Source: a virus (Duplodnaviria > Heunggongvirae > Uroviricota > Caudoviricetes). From it: DNA of 46,878 bases. The notes beneath the pieces were generated by a model, which worked only from the letters and a program-made list of their open reading frames with translations, did not search any database and was not told the DNA's origin. Of this stretch, positions 1,569-13,127 are shown one piece after another. Position 1 is the first letter of the stretch, and every line of letters starts with the position of its first letter. Location of the stretch: the IMG/VR virus record IMGVR_UViG_2529292735_000017. One strand, 5' to 3'. The translations under genes and the position numbers were made by a program.

Positions 1569-1640
1569 CGATTTCTTTATCTCTTACATCAGACGAGCGC
1601 CGGTTGCAGAATACCAGTCACAACCGGCGACAGTTGAACA

Positions 1641-4112
1641 TTAAGAATCAGCCTGACTCGGGATCAGTTTTTGCCAGATAGCTGAAACGTATTTTGCCTG
1701 GTAACGGGCGTCATCAAGTGCATTATGGCGCTCACCTTCGAATGGAATAGCCGTTCTGGCATCGAAGTCTATGGCTTTCCCCAGCTCAACGATTGTGCGT
1801 ACATCGCGATCGTTGTAGTAACGCCACGGGCAGGGGATCCCCTGCCGTTCGTATGAACGGCGCAAAATCGTGTTGTCGAAGTTGGCTCCATTTCCCCAGA
1901 CATGAACAAAAAATTCACCGGAGTTTTCGTCGATAAATTCCCGCAATTGTAACAGTGCATCATCTAACGGGATTTCATCGGTCATAATGGCAGATTGCGC
2001 TTCGCGTGATTGTTTAAGCCACCATTTAATGGTGTCCCGATCAATGACTCCGCCAGCAGTTTCCAGATCGATAGTCTTACTAAATTCCGGTCCCATATCT
2101 CCGGTTTGCGGATCGAAAAATATTGCACCTATTGAGATAATCGGGGCATCGGGATTTTTTCCCATGGTTTCAAGGTCGATCATCAGATGAATCCCCGCTC
2201 TGCTGGTGGATGTGAGATTATGATGACCGTTCACCTTAATTAAGGGATCTGACGCCTCGCCAGTTTCACTATCGCTGGCATGATGCTGATTGCTGCCAGT
2301 GTTCTCCTTGTGCTGATGCGCAGAGCCTTCCATTTCCTCCAGATCATTTTTCTGAACTTCAGGCTGATTCTCTCCATCGAATATTTCCTGGTATGTTGCG
2401 TCACCCATCACCGCACCACAATCAGGGCAGTTGCCGCCACCGCTCTGACCGCAGGCGGTGCAGATCTTTTCCGGTTCCTGTTGCACTACTGGTTCAGGTT
2501 GTTTCGTTTCTGGCTCGTTTTGTTGCGTATTTGGGCTGTTTTGTTCCGCTTTCTGGTCGTTCTGTTCCGTTTCTTGCTGGTTCTGGTTCACAGAATCGCG
2601 GGTCTGGATCCCCTTAATCCATTTCGGATCATTCGGGTCGCTAATCCCTTCAACAAATTCACCACGTGATACTGCAAGCAGTTCATCGGCGTCAGGCTGG
2701 CTGATATTGGCTGCCTGCATAATTTTGTTTACTTCGTCAGCGGTAACTTTTACTGACCCTGGTTGTGCGGTCGTGTCAGATGCACCAGTATTTTGTTGTG
2801 AACCTGAGTATGTACCGTTTTTGCGGGCGAAATATTCTTCTTTCGTGATTTCAGTAGCCCCAGCAGACAGCGCCTTATCCAGACCAGAAAGTTTATTTGC
2901 GCGACCGTATTTTTCGCCATCCTTGTCGGTGAAGAGGAAGTAGAACGGCCCCTCACGTTCTACAGATGGTTCGACTTCCACTTTGCATTCGGTTTTTTCG
3001 TTGTCTGGAATTGCCGTTTCCACTGCATCAGTTTCTGGTACTGGCGACGAGAGAGTATCAGTTGCGCTCTGATTTGTTCCTTCATCTTCAAACACGCCCT
3101 TTGTAGTCAGGTATTCAGTAATGTATTTGTTCAGTGCCACAGGGTCTTTGTGAATGTCGATCGGACGTTCACGGACAAGGCCAAAAATAGTCTGGCGGTC
3201 GTAGCGAAGGGCATCAGGCTGTTTGCGCATTGATGCCGAGATACGCTTCCAGTCTTCGCGGTCGTTGTCGATAACTTCATTTTTTGCCCAGCGATGGATG
3301 CTGCCGTCAATGTTTCCGGCATCCACATCACCAGGCCAGAGAGCGTAGGCCAGTTCGTCATCCAGTGTTTTCCATGTCTGCTTGTATTCGCGATGAATGG
3401 CAGCAATGACCGGGTTGATTTTTCCTGTTGAATTTTCAGTGTGCTGTTGATTGGCTCTGGCGCGGGCGAGATCAACAACAGACGTGTATTTTCCGGCTTC
3501 CTTGCGTTCACCTTCGCGACGTTTTTTCCAGATGCGCATCTCTGCCTGAATTTCGGGCCATTTGGCACCAGGCTTACATTTATGCTTAACCCACCCGATG
3601 GCATGCAGCTTAAGCTCCGGATACATAGCGTTAACTTCTGGCATTTTCATCAACGCTTCAACGATATGGCCGTCGAATGTTGCCATGTCTTCCTGCAACA
3701 ATTCCTGTGCGCTAATCACCATATCAACAGTGATGTTTTCACATGTGTCGAACTTAACCATGACAGCGTTCTGTACTTCAGGGGCTAGGTTGTCAAAAGT
3801 GACGTTCATCGGATCGGATTCAGTCTCGACCGGGACAAAGGAAGCAGACGCCTCATCCCAGCGGTTTTCCTGCATATATTCAGCATCCCAGGAATCGAGG
3901 GCAGGGCGGGGTATACCGGGTTTATCCTCGCAAACAAGAAATTTATAAGCGCAGTCCTGAGCAGCCGGATAATGTTCCAGGAATTGCCAGTGAAATTTTG
4001 CGCGGGCGCGACGTTCATCACCGGCTTCAATGGCAGTGGCTACAGCGACGGCACCTTCTTCCTTTATTGCCTGTTCGTCCGGAATGGCGGCGCAAATAAA
4101 GACTTTACTCAT
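1641..4112 (-). CDS. Large exonuclease (exodeoxyribonuclease VIII-like) with C-terminal DnaQ-like 3'-5' exonuclease domain
   Basis: 823-aa ORF; C-terminal DEDD-type exonuclease pattern (…IDLETMG…HVWGNGANFD…HNALDDARY…); internal low-complexity Q/E/P-rich segment and CxxC…CxxC cluster. Confidence 0.7.
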   Translation of the reverse strand: MSKVFICAAIPDEQAIKEEGAVAVATAIEAGDERRARAKFHWQFLEHYPAAQDCAYKFLVCEDKPGIPRPALDSWDAEYMQENRWDEASASFVPVETESDPMNVTFDNLAPEVQNAVMVKFDTCENITVDMVISAQELLQEDMATFDGHIVEALMKMPEVNAMYPELKLHAIGWVKHKCKPGAKWPEIQAEMRIWKKRREGERKEAGKYTSVVDLARARANQQHTENSTGKINPVIAAIHREYKQTWKTLDDELAYALWPGDVDAGNIDGSIHRWAKNEVIDNDREDWKRISASMRKQPDALRYDRQTIFGLVRERPIDIHKDPVALNKYITEYLTTKGVFEDEGTNQSATDTLSSPVPETDAVETAIPDNEKTECKVEVEPSVEREGPFYFLFTDKDGEKYGRANKLSGLDKALSAGATEITKEEYFARKNGTYSGSQQNTGASDTTAQPGSVKVTADEVNKIMQAANISQPDADELLAVSRGEFVEGISDPNDPKWIKGIQTRDSVNQNQQETEQNDQKAEQNSPNTQQNEPETKQPEPVVQQEPEKICTACGQSGGGNCPDCGAVMGDATYQEIFDGENQPEVQKNDLEEMEGSAHQHKENTGSNQHHASDSETGEASDPLIKVNGHHNLTSTSRAGIHLMIDLETMGKNPDAPIISIGAIFFDPQTGDMGPEFSKTIDLETAGGVIDRDTIKWWLKQSREAQSAIMTDEIPLDDALLQLREFIDENSGEFFVHVWGNGANFDNTILRRSYERQGIPCPWRYYNDRDVRTIVELGKAIDFDARTAIPFEGERHNALDDARYQAKYVSAIWQKLIPSQADS

Positions 4113-8178: not shown

Positions 8179-8580
8179 GTGGCAAAAGTTTTTACACAAG
8201 AAGAGCGGGAAAAAATTAAAGGGCAGGTGGTGGAACTCGTGCGCCAGAGCGGTCGTGAGACGTTACGGCAACTGGAAGCTAAAACAGGTGCGACTAGATA
8301 TCTGATGAGCGTTCTTGCCAGAGAGCTGGTAGCCAGTGGCGATGTATACAACTCCGGCTACGGGTTATTCCCGTCTGAACAGGCGCGTAAGGACTGGCAA
8401 AACGCCCGCAAAAAACTATCGAGGGCAAAGGTGAAGAAAACAGCTGTGGTTGATCCGGACCTTATCTGGTCGTTACCTGATGGAGAAATACGTCGCTACG
8501 ACAGTCGCCTAAACATAATCTGTCGCGAGTGCCGGATGAGTGAAGTTATGCAGCGCATACTGGCATTTTATCAGGGATAA
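8179..8580 (+). CDS. Hypothetical protein
   Basis: 133-aa ORF with GTG start after a purine-rich stretch; no recognisable motif. Confidence 0.5.
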   Translation: MAKVFTQEEREKIKGQVVELVRQSGRETLRQLEAKTGATRYLMSVLARELVASGDVYNSGYGLFPSEQARKDWQNARKKLSRAKVKKTAVVDPDLIWSLPDGEIRRYDSRLNIICRECRMSEVMQRILAFYQG

Positions 8581-9014
8581 TGTTAGGTATTTTAGACGTT
8601 ACTAGATTAAAAAGCATTAGTTCAGGAGTGAATTGACATTCTCATTTTTCATGGCACAGGGTAGATCTGGCGTGGTTGTCCGCTTTGTGCCAAGAGCGGA
8701 CGTTGGTATGCAAGAGCCCTCCAAAAGTTGATGGTTGGTTTGCAGGGGGGCTTAAAGAAACTGCACTTATCAAGTTGAAGTTCTGTATTCAGCGAAATCG
8801 TAGCACTCTGACGATAAGTAACTCCGGTACTCCGCTCTTCGATGAAGAACCAGAGTAATCCCCCCGAAAAACCAGCGCATCAAAATTGGATCTTCAGCGG
8901 TAGCTTATCGGCTATCGGAAGTACAGGTGTGGATTCGTGGTGAATTGCTTTGATAATAAACGATTAATACGGAAAAACGCATTAATCATTTATTAGCTTT
9001 TAGTAAACCACAAT

Positions 9015-10364
9015 TTATTCCGTTTTACATATCATAGTAGTCGATTGGAGAATATAGTTTCTGGGAATGTACTCTTCAAAGTGTTCGTCCTTTTTAAATA
9101 CATGAACTACATTTGGGAATAATTGATAGTCAACAGGGTGTATAGCGTTTGGATTATGGTACATGTACATGGCTGTACACCATGGTTCTTGATAGTTAGG
9201 GTCACTTACATCGGCTGAAAATGGATGTGGGGCTGCATCCTGATCAGTTTTAACACCACTGACGTACACTTTGAATCCACTCGCCTCTACACCTGCAAGA
9301 ATTCCCATCCGGTTAAACTTAGGTATGGTTGCTTGAGTAGTGAGTAAAACGGCAGAAACATAATTATTTTGTTCTGAGCCAAAAAAGTTCGACTTGATAC
9401 TTCTATTTTCATCTGTATGTCTTTCAATAGAAATGCCTGACTCAATATCAATCCCGTACAAATAGCTATGCAAGGCTTCGCTTGAGAAGGCCATGGACAT
9501 TCTTTTTGAATAATCCTGCATTGCTATGACAAATGGTTTGTTCTTTGTATGGTTGAGTTCCCAGTAATGAACTTTCTCTGGCTCAGGGCAATGCCGGACT
9601 TTTTTTAATAAACTTCTTGCAAACTTAAAAGGCATGACATTTAGAACATGTTTTCTTAATTCATCCATCTGTTCATCGTTAATGACTTTTCTTTCAAGAG
9701 GGGCTTCTGCTTCAGCAATGCTTACAGCCTCTACAGCAATTTCCACTCCAAATTTAGATAGCAGAAAATCTGGTTGATTGTATTCTCTATTCATTTCAAA
9801 GTCGAGTTCATAAAATACAGCGTTCAAATATAATTCAAATAACCTTGAATTAAATGCATCACTTTGAAAATCCCTTATAAATATTCCATCAGGATCTTTG
9901 AACCAGTATGCAAGTTCCTCAAGAACAATATATGCAGGGAAATGAAGAGGGTCTTCGAGGAGCATTTTTATATAAACATTCCTTTTTTTCTCTGGGACTT
10001 TACTCAAGAATAATGAAAAAGGTTTGGATGATTCATCGCCTTGCATGAATGTACCATTTTGGTGCTGCGCCAGCATCTTTGGTATGTCATCGTTCAAATT
10101 ATTAAGCAAGACATCCATTGAATCAAATGAAGCCAAGACGTTTATTGCTCTGAATTTTTTATCTAAATCCCGACCTAAGACTATTGCGTTAAAATCTTTA
10201 TCAATATTGCATATGATTATTGTGGATAACAATGTTATCCCATTCCCCTCATATTTAAACCAGCGTATCTCCTCAGAAAATGTCTTAAGGTAAGGTGAGC
10301 GACCGTAAAAATAAATATCAAATTGTTCTTTGCTGATCTCACTGAAGTGTAATCCTGCGTTCAT
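9015..10364 (-). CDS. Uncharacterised 449-aa protein (orphan moron; candidate defence/accessory gene)
   Basis: Long uninterrupted ORF on the strand opposite all flanking phage genes; visibly AT-rich; no Walker A, HExxH or other motif I can assign. Confidence 0.8.
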   Translation of the reverse strand: MNAGLHFSEISKEQFDIYFYGRSPYLKTFSEEIRWFKYEGNGITLLSTIIICNIDKDFNAIVLGRDLDKKFRAINVLASFDSMDVLLNNLNDDIPKMLAQHQNGTFMQGDESSKPFSLFLSKVPEKKRNVYIKMLLEDPLHFPAYIVLEELAYWFKDPDGIFIRDFQSDAFNSRLFELYLNAVFYELDFEMNREYNQPDFLLSKFGVEIAVEAVSIAEAEAPLERKVINDEQMDELRKHVLNVMPFKFARSLLKKVRHCPEPEKVHYWELNHTKNKPFVIAMQDYSKRMSMAFSSEALHSYLYGIDIESGISIERHTDENRSIKSNFFGSEQNNYVSAVLLTTQATIPKFNRMGILAGVEASGFKVYVSGVKTDQDAAPHPFSADVSDPNYQEPWCTAMYMYHNPNAIHPVDYQLFPNVVHVFKKDEHFEEYIPRNYILQSTTMICKTE

Positions 10365-10487
10365 ACCAATTCCTTTTCAATGAATAATTGGCCTTTAGGA
10401 GTGATTCCCTTTGTCTTTAATTCAGTTCTAACTAGTTCTTTAATCCAATAGCCTAAGCTCATCATGCAGTTGGATCATAAGACAACG

Positions 10488-10514
10488 CCCTATAGTGCTC
10501 GTGATACTATAGGG
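10488..10514. repeat. Perfect 9-bp inverted repeat (CCCTATAGT-n9-ACTATAGGG)
   Basis: Read directly; about 125 bp upstream of the 449-aa ORF start; no following T-run, so more likely an operator or RNA structure than a terminator. Confidence 0.6.
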
Positions 10515-11107
10515 CATCTGACCACACTGTTAACTGGAGTAACGACTATGGCAGGAATACAGCATAACCAAACTCACCCCAAACTTACATAGCGCTTTCT
10601 GGCCGTGAGCATAACAAGGTCCACTCCTCGCTCAAAGCGGACTAGAAGGTTAGCTTGTGTCGGACTTTGCGTATTAAATGACTAGTGGTTGAGCCCCATT
10701 TCCACAGAAAAAATCAGAGAAACTATACCCAATAGTTGTATTGAATCACTGACGAGACAGCCTCATATTCATCAGGACTGGTGTACGTCCAATACAGGAG
10801 GTTGTGGTGCTGGTTCTCAAATGTGCGCTGGCTATTACGGCTGTAATGGCGATTTATTGTCTTGCTATTGTTCTTATGGATCGCCTTTCTGACTGATTTC
10901 ACATTGGCGAGGTAACGGTAGTTAAGTAGAATGGCTGCGGGTGCTTGAGGCTATCTGCCTCGGGCATGAACACCAACGGCAGATAGAGAAAAGCCCCAGT
11001 TAACATTACGCGTCCTGCAAGACGCTTAACATTAATCTGAGGCCAATTTCATGCTAGACACATGTAGGTTAGCCTCTTACGTGCCGAAAGGCAAGGAGAA
11101 GCAGGCT

Positions 11108-11263
11108 ATGAAGCAGCAAAAGGCGATGTTAATCGCCCTGATCGTCATCTGTTTAACCGTCATAGTGACGGCACTGGTAACGAGGAAAGACCTCTGCGAG
11201 GTACGAATCCGAACCGGGCAGACGGAGGTCGCTGTCTTCACAGCTTACGAACCTGAGGAGTAA
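11108..11263 (+). CDS. hokD: Hok/Gef-family type I toxin (HokD/RelF-like)
   Basis: 51 aa MKQQKAMLIALIVICLTVIVTALVTRKDLCEVRIRTGQTEVAVFTAYEPEE: a single transmembrane helix plus conserved Cys/Tyr tail typical of Hok; AGGAGAAG RBS. Confidence 0.85.
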   Translation: MKQQKAMLIALIVICLTVIVTALVTRKDLCEVRIRTGQTEVAVFTAYEPEE

Positions 11264-11332
11264 GAGACCCGGCGAGGGAGAAATCCCTCGCCACCTCTGA
11301 TGTGGCAGGCATCCTCAACGCACCCGCACTTA

Positions 11333-11352
11333 ACCCGCTTCGGCGGGTTTTT
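11333..11352 (+). terminator. Intrinsic terminator downstream of hok
   Basis: ACCCGC-TTCG-GCGGGT stem-loop followed by a T-run; preceded by a second hairpin GGCGAGGG…CCCTCGCC. Confidence 0.5.
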
Positions 11353-11479
11353 GTTTTTATTTTCAACGCGTTTGAAGTTCTGGACGGTGCCGGAATAGAA
11401 TCAAAAATACTTAAGTAGCGCGCAGGGATAAGAGGGATGGTCCCTTAAAGGGGAGAGCTAATTATCCGGAAGGATTCTG

Positions 11480-11731
11480 ATGATGAACATCGAAGAACTG
11501 CGTAAAATTTTTTGTGAAGATGGCCTCTATGCGGTGTGCGTTGAAAATGGAAATCTTGTTAGTCATTACCGCATTATGTGTTTGCGAAAGAATGGGGCTG
11601 CGTTAATTAATTTTGTGGATGGTCGAGTGACAGACGGATTTATCTTGCGCGAAGGTGAGTTTGTCACTTCATTACAGGCACTGAAAGAGATCGGAATAAA
11701 AGCAGGCTTTTCAGCTTTTGCAGAAGAATAA
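11480..11731 (+). CDS. rem: Rem-like hypothetical protein
   Basis: 83-aa ORF; size and position next to hok and ydfU match Qin rem; identity from memory. Confidence 0.55.
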   Translation: MMNIEELRKIFCEDGLYAVCVENGNLVSHYRIMCLRKNGAALINFVDGRVTDGFILREGEFVTSLQALKEIGIKAGFSAFAEE

Positions 11732-11797
11732 ACTCATCTACAATCTTGCGCGGGGCTGAACTCCCGCTGAGTAACACCGTGCCACCGGAGAAAACCG

Positions 11798-12076
11798 ATG
11801 GCACGCAACGTAAAATATTACAATTCTGATAATTCGCCCGTTCTTGCCTGCACGCACGAGCGGTATTCTCACGCATTCAAGTCTGAATGGTTCCAACACC
11901 CTCCATGCACTGAAGAGCAGGCTGAATGGATAATTCAGTGTTACCGCAGGCGCGGATACGAGGTTAAGAAAGCCCTTAGTCTCGACTACCGTCACTGGAT
12001 AATCTCAGTCAGATTGCCTTACTCCGAACGCCCACCACGTGCGTCCCGCACTTTCCAGCAACGGATCTGGAGGTAA
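11798..12076 (+). CDS. Hypothetical small protein
   Basis: 92-aa ORF ending 2 nt before the ydfU GTG start; weak RBS; coding status uncertain. Confidence 0.35.
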   Translation: MARNVKYYNSDNSPVLACTHERYSHAFKSEWFQHPPCTEEQAEWIIQCYRRRGYEVKKALSLDYRHWIISVRLPYSERPPRASRTFQQRIWR

Positions 12077-12077
12077 C

Positions 12078-13127
12078 GTGCGGGTATTACTTAGACCTGT
12101 TCTGGTGCCTGAGCTTGGGCTGGTGGTCCTTAAGCCGGGCCGTGAATCCATACAGATATTTCATAATCCTCGAGTGCTGGTGGAACCGGAACCAAAAAGC
12201 ATGCGTAATCTGCCATCCGGAGTCGTTCCTGCCGTTGGCCAGCCGCTGGCGGAAGACAAAACATTGCTGCCGTTTTTTAGTAACGAACGGGTGATTCGTG
12301 CTGCTGGCGGCGTTGGCGCATTGTCTGACTGGCTATTACGTCATGTTACATCCTGCCAGTGGCCTAATGGAGATTACCATCACACTGAAACAGTCATTCA
12401 CCGTTATGGTACCGGCGCAATGGTGTTGTGTTGGCACTGCGACAACCAACTGCGTGACCAGACATCGGAATCACTGGAGCTGCTTGCTCAACAAAATCTG
12501 ACAGCATGGGTGATTGACGTCATCCGTCACGCAATAAGCGGTACGCAGGAGCGGGAATTATCTTTGGCTGAATTATCCTGGTGGGCGGTCTGCAATCAGG
12601 TGGTGGATGCACTACCTGAGGCTGTATCGCGTCGTTCGCTGGGATTACCAGCGGAAAAAATCTGCTCGGTGTACCGCGAAAGCGACATCGTACCGGGAGA
12701 GCAGACCGCCACCAGCATACTGAAACAGCGCACAAAAAATCTTGCGCCGCTGCCTCACGCCCACCAGCAACAGAACCCACCACAGGAAAAGACGGTGGTC
12801 AGCATTGCCGTTGATCCTGAGTCTCCGGAATCTTTCATGAAACGACCTAAACGTCGCCGCTGGGTTAACGAGAAATACAAACGCTGGGTGAAGACACAGC
12901 CGTGTGCGTGTTGTGGTAAGCCAGCCGACGATCCCCATCACCTGATTGGTCATGGTCAGGGCGGAATGGGGACAAAATCTCACGATATTTTCACGCTACC
13001 GCTGTGTCGGGAGCATCACAACGAGCTTCATGCGGATCCTCTGGCGTTCGAAGAAAAGCATGGTTCTCAGGTTGATTTAATTTTTCGTTTTCTTGATCAC
13101 GCCTTTGCAACTGGCGTGCTTGGGTAA
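12078..13127 (+). CDS. ydfU: YdfU-like DUF968-family protein with C-terminal Cys/His (HNH-like) motif
   Basis: GTG start at 12078 with perfect GGAGG RBS gives 349 aa; C-terminal …CACCGK…HHLIGHGQGG…CREHHNELH. Confidence 0.8.
   Translation: MRVLLRPVLVPELGLVVLKPGRESIQIFHNPRVLVEPEPKSMRNLPSGVVPAVGQPLAEDKTLLPFFSNERVIRAAGGVGALSDWLLRHVTSCQWPNGDYHHTETVIHRYGTGAMVLCWHCDNQLRDQTSESLELLAQQNLTAWVIDVIRHAISGTQERELSLAELSWWAVCNQVVDALPEAVSRRSLGLPAEKICSVYRESDIVPGEQTATSILKQRTKNLAPLPHAHQQQNPPQEKTVVSIAVDPESPESFMKRPKRRRWVNEKYKRWVKTQPCACCGKPADDPHHLIGHGQGGMGTKSHDIFTLPLCREHHNELHADPLAFEEKHGSQVDLIFRFLDHAFATGVLG

Follow-up and report, generated by a model that had tools for sequence, protein, structure and literature searches.

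A mosaic region between the PD-T7-1 defence gene and hok in a Qin-like prophage: cassette end, backbone spacer, conserved small open reading frame and hok control region

In the Caudoviricetes virus record IMGVR_UViG_2529292735_000017 of IMG/VR, 743 bp without RefSeq annotation separate an orphan open reading frame (ORF), whose start-codon side ends at 10364, from the toxin gene hok (hokD), whose ATG lies at 11108. We put the probability at about three in four that this region, positions 10365-11107 of the 46,878-nucleotide stretch analysed here (the window), is best explained as a whole as four juxtaposed modules: the tail of a cassette that carries the anti-phage defence gene PD-T7-1, a spacer that belongs to the prophage backbone, a small gene, and the control region of hok. 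Most of the region is of known kinds, namely the leader of a type I toxin-antitoxin locus and the flank of a known defence cassette. The additions are an unannotated conserved small ORF, the relic of an apparently undescribed satellite antisense small RNA (sRNA), and the plausible birth of a promoter. The original prediction had rightly described about 740 bp of unannotated sequence between the orphan ORF and hok, and had offered three options for it: the promoter or operator of the orphan gene, a hok leader, or another sRNA. Each of the three fits a different sub-segment. That prediction overlooked that the region is of mosaic origin, that it contains a boundary hairpin and a conserved small ORF, and that relBE is a different cargo of the same hotspot. 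Its statement that there is no convincing ORF does not hold, as a 29-codon ORF at 10807-10896 (plus strand), a mok-like start at 11051, and icd-like and RHH-like (ribbon-helix-helix) remnants all lie inside.

The window is a Qin/Rac-like lambdoid prophage with the local gene order replication genes, DUF977 gene, variable slot, hokD, rem, ydfU (DUF968), rusA, and Q-type antiterminator. Its sequence from 8500 to 10700 shows 100% identity with Escherichia phage mEp460_ev081 and with several E. coli chromosomes. The sub-segments of the 743 bp differ strongly in their distribution, and the region is therefore a mosaic. Only 12 complete E. coli genomes contain all of it at 100% identity, with no RefSeq feature beneath it in any of them, while 10365-10615 occurs at ~100% identity in 198 genomes, mostly with other right-hand neighbours, and 10614-11107 is present in thousands. 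A column-wise profile over 83 distinct homologues places the start of backbone conservation at ~10616-10628, from where it extends into hok.

The module next to hok comprises the following features.

10904-10932, plus strand: hok promoter, TTGGCG-17-TAGAAT, predicted start ~10939
10939-11113, plus strand: hok mRNA leader, with the translational activator element (tac) at 10939-10951, the mok-like ATG at 11051 and the hok Shine-Dalgarno (SD) sequence at 11095-11098
10985-11094, minus strand: predicted Sok antisense gene, TTGCCT (11094-11089), 17 nt, TAACCT (11071-11066)

That 10904-11107 holds the hok promoter together with the whole leader of a type I toxin-antitoxin locus of the hok/mok/sok kind, with a predicted Sok gene opposite, is strongly supported. 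The leader matches the Rfam family RF01794 with 115.3 bits (E = 8.7e-27; gathering threshold 59) over positions 1-157 of the 157-position model. What this 'sok' model describes is the hok mRNA leader, since its match is on the hok-sense strand. The predicted start at ~10939 follows from the position of the hok promoter, and the RF01794 match begins there. Folded at minimum energy, the 418-nt mRNA (10939-11356) has its 5' end paired with the fold-back inhibitory element (fbi) at ~11309-11325; the computed duplex energy is -34.4 kcal/mol. From the ATG at 11051, an ORF of 70 aa runs in the reading frame of hok as far as the hok stop; it is annotated as MokW in phage records and matches the Pfam family HOK_GEF (PF01848, E = 3e-23). 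Thus the suggested hok leader with mok/sok-type control is well supported for 10904-11107 and for that part only. The covariance-model search for Sok and other sRNAs that had been proposed (Rfam, E <= 1, 9000-12500) matched RF01794 at 10939-11113 on the plus strand and returned no match within 10365-10938. The isrK, rsmX and ceN48 matches were set aside as sub-threshold look-alikes of terminators or leaders; isrK falls on the hok 3' untranslated region and terminator at 11272-11353 (plus strand) with 25.7 bits against a gathering threshold of 50, most likely a terminator resemblance only.

In plasmid R1, mok and hok are in different frames. The locus described here differs in this respect from known hok/mok/sok systems, since its mok-like ATG is in frame with hok and gives an N-terminally extended ORF of 70 aa, and it differs from the RF01794 consensus by a 16-nt insertion in the Sok hairpin. 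On the basis of the R1 layout, we take the Sok RNA to run from ~11059 to ~10985 as a long hairpin followed by CUUUUCUCU. The candidate RNA folds at -30.7 kcal/mol, and its -10 hexamer, TAACCT, is too weak to be listed by the promoter scan. The only variable patch of the hok module, 11044-11064, occurs as two sharply distinct alleles (CCAATTTCATGCTAGACACATG and CTCAATCTATGAACGGCAAATC) in an otherwise 94-100% conserved leader. It coincides with the mok start and with the place predicted for the 5' end of Sok, so that prophages may fall into Sok/hok specificity groups. In other respects the locus resembles both the plasmid R1 system and hokW-sokW: a HOK_GEF protein, a full-length RF01794 leader, tac-fbi pairing and a mok-like start. 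It also has, by prediction, an antisense promoter in the R1 position, and it shares its prophage location with hokW-sokW, which is a functional locus in the Sakai prophage Sp5 (PMC8621323).

A comparison with the Qin prophage of K-12 shows how this control region can be lost. The order relB-relE-hokD in K-12, as given in the original prediction, is correct, the slot there holding relB-relE with ydfV and flxA. Likewise, relBE is absent near hok in the window: tblastn with the K-12 RelB, RelE, YdfV and FlxA proteins gave no relevant match in or near the region, and none for RelB or RelE in 8500-13000. A weak RelB-like tblastn match (38% identity over 39 aa, E = 0.002) lies far from the region, at 44047-43937 on the minus strand. 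The two prophages have the same backbone, with hokD followed by rem, ydfU and the Q-type antiterminator, and HokD is 100% identical to the K-12 protein. However, K-12 has sequence in common with the window only from 11094 on: 14 nt upstream of hokD are kept, whereas the hok promoter, leader, mok, sok, small ORF and spacer are gone. The hokD gene of K-12 has therefore lost its whole control apparatus. In K-12, the arrival of relBE would have removed everything up to 14 nt before hokD; the window lacks relBE because relBE is another cargo of the same hotspot.

On the other side of the region lies the defence cassette, which is bounded as follows.

8678-10642: PD-T7-1 cassette, 1,965 bp, hairpin-bounded; 10365-10642 is its right-hand end
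9015-10364, minus strand: PD-T7-1 anti-phage defence gene (the orphan ORF), 449 aa, PADLOC model PDLC04073
8678-8711: left terminal inverted repeat of the cassette, with the 24-nt hairpin GTCCGCT-N10-AGCGGAC at 8678-8701
10609-10642: right terminal inverted repeat of the cassette, with the hairpin GTCCACT-CCTCGCTCAA-AGCGGAC at 10619-10642

The orphan ORF matches the PADLOC PD-T7-1 model PDLC04073 over residues 8-447 (E = 4e-157) and has no Pfam family match. PD-T7-1 was obtained by functional selection as a single-gene anti-phage system, and phage protection was shown for the ECOR46 gene (Vassallo et al. 2022, PMC9519451). As in that study, PD-T7-1 appears here as a one-gene system, present in prophages and in the P2 'fun' hotspot. 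To this we add the satellite relics upstream of the gene in a widespread cassette, and a homologue in a phage-inducible chromosomal island (PICI) that is preceded by an intact RHH/HicB-like gene. Copies of the cassette in lambdoid prophages and in the Z/fun hotspot of the Yersinia P2-like phage vB_YpM_46 have 97-100% identity. Homology to the Yersinia phage starts exactly at 8678, and homology with the P2-like phage and with E. coli 042 stops at the 10609-10642 repeat, which is the junction of cargo and backbone. The 34-nt terminal inverted repeats are 82% complementary, and the 24-nt hairpin pattern occurs in the window at 8678 and 10619 only, with 0 occurrences expected.

In Qin-like prophages, more than 20 different cargoes are framed by the same inverted pair of hairpins, which sits precisely at the cargo/backbone junction; cargo units are always enclosed in this way. 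In other strains, the slot between DUF977 and hokD is occupied by a 1,455-nt gene or by DUF7380, DUF5677 and SIR2-family genes, among others. With such different genes in the same place, the slot is a cargo hotspot. E. coli 042 has several cargo units in succession, head to tail, each with its own hairpin pair, and the motif is also present in locus L004 at 2098, 3272, 3314 and 7485. The pair has been seen before in P2-like phages: in GenBank AJ512681, the Z region of P2-EC48 (locus L333), the motif at ~91-114 ends the annotated 'left inverted repeat', and a right copy lies at 2713. A 2004 article by Nilsson, Karlsson and Haggard-Ljungquist (Mol Biol Evol 21:1) reportedly, going by its title alone, proposes site-specific recombination. 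The P2-like Z/fun repeats have the same 24-nt motif, and the PD-T7-1 cassette occupies that locus in vB_YpM_46; in contrast, the pair here brackets the cargo slot of Qin-like lambdoid prophages. We therefore regard the hairpin pair as already known from P2-like phages and as marking out the lambdoid hotspot as well. Both ends of the cassette fall on the hairpin motif, and one unit has identical, exact ends in two unrelated phage families. It is a speculative and, in our estimate, rather unlikely extension of these findings that the 24-nt hairpins might be the recombination sites of a cassette-exchange system moving defence genes, with satellite-derived cargo, between P2-like phages and Qin-like prophages. 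As a separate observation, the ydfU/DUF968 protein encoded at 12039-13127 (plus strand), ~1 kb from the hairpin-bounded hotspot, has an HNH-like CxxC...HH motif and is annotated as 'HNH endonuclease' in phage HannyBb.

Inside the cassette, PD-T7-1 is accompanied by three gene remnants.

8873-8944, plus strand: alpA remnant, last 24 codons, 79% identical to an AlpA-like protein of PICI locus L197
10361-10465, minus strand: C-terminal remnant of an RHH/HicB-like gene, a 34-codon ORF whose stop overlaps the PD-T7-1 start (ATGA)
10548-10592, plus strand: truncated icd-like gene, 14 codons, which reads MAGIQHNQTHPKLT and then stops

At the place equivalent to the alpA remnant, RefSeq marks a partial AlpA/helix-turn-helix pseudogene in loci L001 and L004. 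Over 24 aa, the 34-codon ORF shares 67% identity (E = 3e-12) with the C-terminal end of a 64-aa L197 protein, which itself matches Pfam HicB with 23.7 bits (cut-off 21); the N-terminal part of the window's RHH gene and the sequence upstream of it are deleted. Satellite DNA homology spans 10476-10607, where the window is 77-82% identical to the beginning of annotated Icd-like genes and to the sequence that precedes them. All of this agrees with the gene order of the intact PICI L197, which is int, alpA, the PD-T7-1 homologue and the 64-aa HicB/RHH protein (both on the minus strand), and an icd-like gene. The cassette thus comes from the interior of a PICI satellite and has the order alpA' - PD-T7-1 - RHH' - antisense sRNA - icd'; its icd-like target gene is dead and the RHH gene ahead of PD-T7-1 is truncated. 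With the truncation of the RHH gene, the native promoter region of PD-T7-1 is gone.

The L197 homologue of PD-T7-1 is a diverged protein of 454 aa (1620-2984, minus strand), and the HicB/RHH-type protein of 64 aa that precedes it is encoded at 2991-3185 on the same strand. PD-T7-1 may therefore natively be a two-gene unit, regulated or antitoxin-guarded. The widespread E. coli cassette retains just the last 24 codons of the L197-type HicB/RHH gene.

The third relic of the satellite in the cassette tail is an RNA.

10476-10555, minus strand: relic cis-antisense sRNA opposite the satellite icd-like gene, with two predicted hairpins
10487-10515, minus strand: inverted repeat read as the sRNA terminator hairpin, with 10-bp arms (10487-10496 and 10506-10515) and a 9-nt loop

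The inverted repeat had been reported as a perfect palindrome at 10488-10514. Its two 10-nt arms are indeed perfect; however, they are separated by a non-symmetric spacer of 9 nt, which makes it an inverted repeat of the stem-loop type and not a gapless palindrome. Arms of at least 10 nt with a loop of 3-12 nt appeared in 4 of 1000 shuffles of the region. The nature of the element became apparent from an alignment of 34 distinct upstream regions of icd-like genes from IMG/VR and E. coli. All variants have a two-hairpin fold, and the minus strand is always the more stable strand. Hairpin 1 carries an anti-SD sequence, CUCC (the complement of the icd SD, GGAG), in its 7-nt loop and an anti-AUG in its stem. 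The G+C-rich hairpin 2 varies greatly in sequence, and a T-run comes after it in intact satellites. Across the 34 variants, 97.9% of the alignment cells are paired, and 59 cells show double changes compared with 24.6 in shuffles, a value reached in 0 of 500. When the partner columns are slid by 1-3 positions, pairing drops to 22-47%. The G-U pairs are valid on the minus strand only, and many of them would be A-C mismatches on the opposite strand. The hairpin of the window aligns with PICI hairpins that have compensatory changes in their arms followed by T-runs. In intact satellites, GCCCTGG...CCAGGGC is followed by GTTGTTTTTT, whereas in the window the hairpin is intact, its tail reads GTTGTCTTATG, and the terminator scan does not list it. 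The inverted repeat of the window thus bears the signature of the terminator hairpin of a satellite cis-antisense sRNA, and not that of a protein operator. In the intact satellites, this sRNA would cover the ribosome-binding site and start codon of the icd-like gene, which makes it a candidate regulator of the PICI icd-primase operon. The copy in the window is considered a relic, as it has a truncated target, two disrupted pairs in hairpin 1 and a degraded U-tract.

Among the three options of the original prediction, 'another small RNA' is therefore borne out in this form, as the relic of a cis-antisense sRNA from a PICI satellite whose target is truncated here. The RNA is not a member of any family in Rfam 15; its sole match there is symR (RF01809), in locus L142, with 35.3 bits against a gathering threshold of 61. 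SymR has no match in the window at E <= 1, and C4 antisense RNA has none in the window or in loci L142 and L143 at E <= 0.1. A literature search returned no description of an antisense RNA at PICI icd-like genes. The Pas sRNAs were rejected as a match, being located elsewhere, near lysis genes. The two-hairpin RNA was found opposite the icd-like SD and AUG in L142 (4970-5042, minus strand), in L143 and in ~30 other IMG/VR loci. Its organization is similar to that of SymR/symE: the RNA is short, its 5' part can pair with the SD and AUG of its target, and an intrinsic terminator comes next. In the immI region of phage P1, c4 RNA controls icd. The satellite RNA resembles P1 c4 in having an icd-type cell-division inhibitor as its target, but it is encoded opposite that target. 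It belongs to neither the SymR nor the c4 family, and the copy in the window is a relic without a target.

Two predicted sites on the minus strand bear on how PD-T7-1 is expressed after the loss of its native upstream region.

10506-10533, minus strand: sigma-70-like promoter, TTAACA-16-TATAGT, 10/12 matches, predicted start ~10499 in the hairpin loop
10589-10561, minus strand: the weak promoter of the sRNA itself, TGTAAG-17-TATGCT, with a -35 match of 2-3/6

The first of these is the best promoter-like site in 10300-11420, and its -10 hexamer is one arm of the hairpin. It is most likely, judging from its sequence, the promoter of PD-T7-1 following the loss of the native RHH-proximal one. The score of 10/12 is found only in the 2 PD-T7-1-linked variants of the 34, the other 32 reaching 8/12 at most and mostly 5-6. 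The substitutions that make the hexamers (G to A to give TTAACA, and arms that carry TATAGT) cost two pairs in hairpin 1. As the changes that create the hexamers break pairs of the sRNA, they suggest that the promoter evolved inside a dead sRNA gene. PD-T7-1 would then be transcribed from a sigma-70 promoter that arose within the relic, and read-through from the sRNA's own promoter across the weakened terminator could contribute.

It is possible, although we consider it doubtful, that the TTAACA/TATAGT match is fortuitous and that PD-T7-1 relies entirely on read-through, with transcripts that begin at the relic sRNA promoter or beyond the cassette. Promoter consensus scans are by themselves weak evidence, the terminator has lost the U-tract of the intact satellites, and the cassette always keeps the sequence up to 10642, in which the sRNA promoter region is included. 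However, the sRNA promoter is a poor one. Moreover, both hexamers of the internal site are improved specifically in the PD-T7-1-linked variant, at the expense of the two hairpin-1 pairs, and the cassette works in both lambdoid and P2-like backbones, which are unrelated, so that a need for outside promoters is less likely. For these reasons, we prefer the internal promoter at 10506-10533.

Between the cassette and the hok control region lie the backbone spacer and the small gene.

10643-10740: backbone spacer, 85-95% column identity over 83 distinct sequences
10741-10769, plus strand: weak promoter-like site, TTGAAT-17-CATATT, 8/12 matches
10796-10896, plus strand: predicted small gene, with AGGAGG at 10796-10801, a 5-nt gap, GTG at 10807, 29 codons and a TGA stop at 10894-10896

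The spacer has no Rfam match, and no consensus RNA structure was detected on either strand of 10643-10810. A possible SD/anti-SD pairing of 10757-10762 with 10798-10803 was discarded, as it is lost in diverged copies. After 10678, the window is without a 14-nt block, AGAAGTGCTGGTGG, that is present in most homologues.

We consider 10741-10896 most likely, from its pattern of variation, to be a self-contained gene for a small inner-membrane protein with a single helix, located in the early-right region of the prophage. The predicted product is a hydrophobic protein of 29 aa, MLVLKCALAITAVMAIYCLAIVLMDRLSD, with a grand average of hydropathy (GRAVY) of 1.74 and a charged C-terminus. Among the 135 homologous copies compared, the frame of 29 codons is intact in 130; four of the remainder are extended at the C-terminus and the last is truncated by the end of its contig. 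Variable sites number 7, 6 and 16 at codon positions 1, 2 and 3, and the replacements are conservative. The ratio of nonsynonymous to synonymous variation (pN/pS) is 0.26-0.30, compared with 0.8-1.7 in the other plus-strand frames. AGGAGG and the GTG at 10807 are invariant, whereas an upstream in-frame GTG is variable. Two longer ORFs were rejected, since neither has a Pfam match or a consistently open frame: a 67-aa TTG ORF at 10689-10892 (plus strand, pN/pS 1.7) and a 59-aa GTG ORF at 10723-10902 (minus strand, pN/pS 0.69), the latter of the kind annotated in phage HannyBb. The module, from ~10737 to just beyond the stop, is found without hok in 8 of 119 copies, e.g., in Shigella flexneri, which supports an independent unit and the weak promoter-like site. 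The hok-less copies are in loci L010 (~2560-2660), L020 (Shigella flexneri), L067, L092, L103, L104, L133 and L136, where unrelated sequence follows; in L010, a gene of the TehB family comes after the module on the opposite strand. More than 1,600 complete E. coli genomes contain the small-ORF region, without any RefSeq annotation of it among the copies listed. Using a tandem-duplicated query, searches of protein databases returned sporadic entries without domains, unnamed or called 'putative membrane protein', and the ORF has no Pfam family match. As a lesser reading, the 29-aa protein and the satellite antisense sRNA might represent new functional families.

An improbable alternative is that the 29-codon ORF is untranslated and that the conservation reflects a regulatory DNA or RNA element of the hok locus or of the early-right transcript. 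The hok -35 hexamer follows the ORF at a distance of 8 nt and no terminator intervenes, RefSeq pipelines make no call, and the flanking non-coding sequence is about equally conserved. These points have to be set against the third-position enrichment, the conservative replacements and the low pN/pS, the invariant AGGAGG with GTG 5 nt downstream, the frame that is intact in nearly all copies, the copies of the module without hok, and the lack of a consensus RNA structure. More improbable still is that the ORF encodes the toxin of a second, undescribed type I toxin-antitoxin pair beside hok. Its size, single hydrophobic helix and charged C-terminus are like those of type I toxins, and it lies in a prophage next to another type I system, but no conserved antisense or divergent promoter was found around the ORF, nor a conserved RNA structure or Pfam similarity. 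A gene for a small membrane protein remains the preferred reading of 10741-10896.

We regard as very improbable the operator half of the prediction made for the orphan gene, by which the inverted repeat is a DNA operator where a dimeric regulator controls PD-T7-1 and perhaps a divergent transcript: its arms do overlap the -10 hexamer of the best promoter-like site, and the native satellite does encode an RHH/HicB-type DNA-binding protein just upstream of its PD-T7-1 homologue, but the arm sequences vary freely across the 34 variants while pairing is retained, the G-U pairs make this pairing valid on one strand only (a property of an RNA and not of a protein-bound palindrome), and the RHH gene of the window is without its N-terminal DNA-binding strand, with no intact regulator gene elsewhere in the cassette. 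The promoter half is plausible for 10506-10533, while the hairpin behaves as an RNA terminator.

Several points weigh against our reading of the region. Every transcription start site given here is a consensus match, and all of the transcripts are deduced from sequence. Sok is placed only by analogy with plasmid R1, and the promoter assigned to the satellite sRNA is poor in both of its elements (-10 TATGCT, -35 match 2-3/6). PD-T7-1 was functional when cloned under its 'native promoter' with 302 nt on one side (PMC9519451). If the 302 nt lie on the upstream side and have the sequence of the window, they would span 10365-10666, which is compatible with the proposed promoter; no connection between the window protein and accession RCQ85672.1 was found. 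As for the small gene, its homologues are closely related (23-24 distinct ORF sequences), there is no obvious terminator between it and the hok promoter, and the antisense frame that shares its third codon positions has a pN/pS of 0.35, though it is not open.

Taken with the evidence above, the four-module reading has consequences for how this part of lambdoid prophages is understood. The window shows the intact hokD locus, and K-12 is the degenerate case, in which relBE-hokD is the product of a cargo replacement that destroyed hok regulation. The 29-codon ORF would be a missing gene call. If the hairpins do act as recombination sites, the exchange of cassettes would be integron-like, with a putative recombinase. 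The satellite antisense sRNA may control the icd-like/primase operon of PICIs and is thus relevant to how these satellites stay silent. PD-T7-1, for its part, has moved among satellite, lambdoid prophage and P2-like phage, and it appears to keep its expression by means of a dead antisense-RNA gene that has turned into a promoter.

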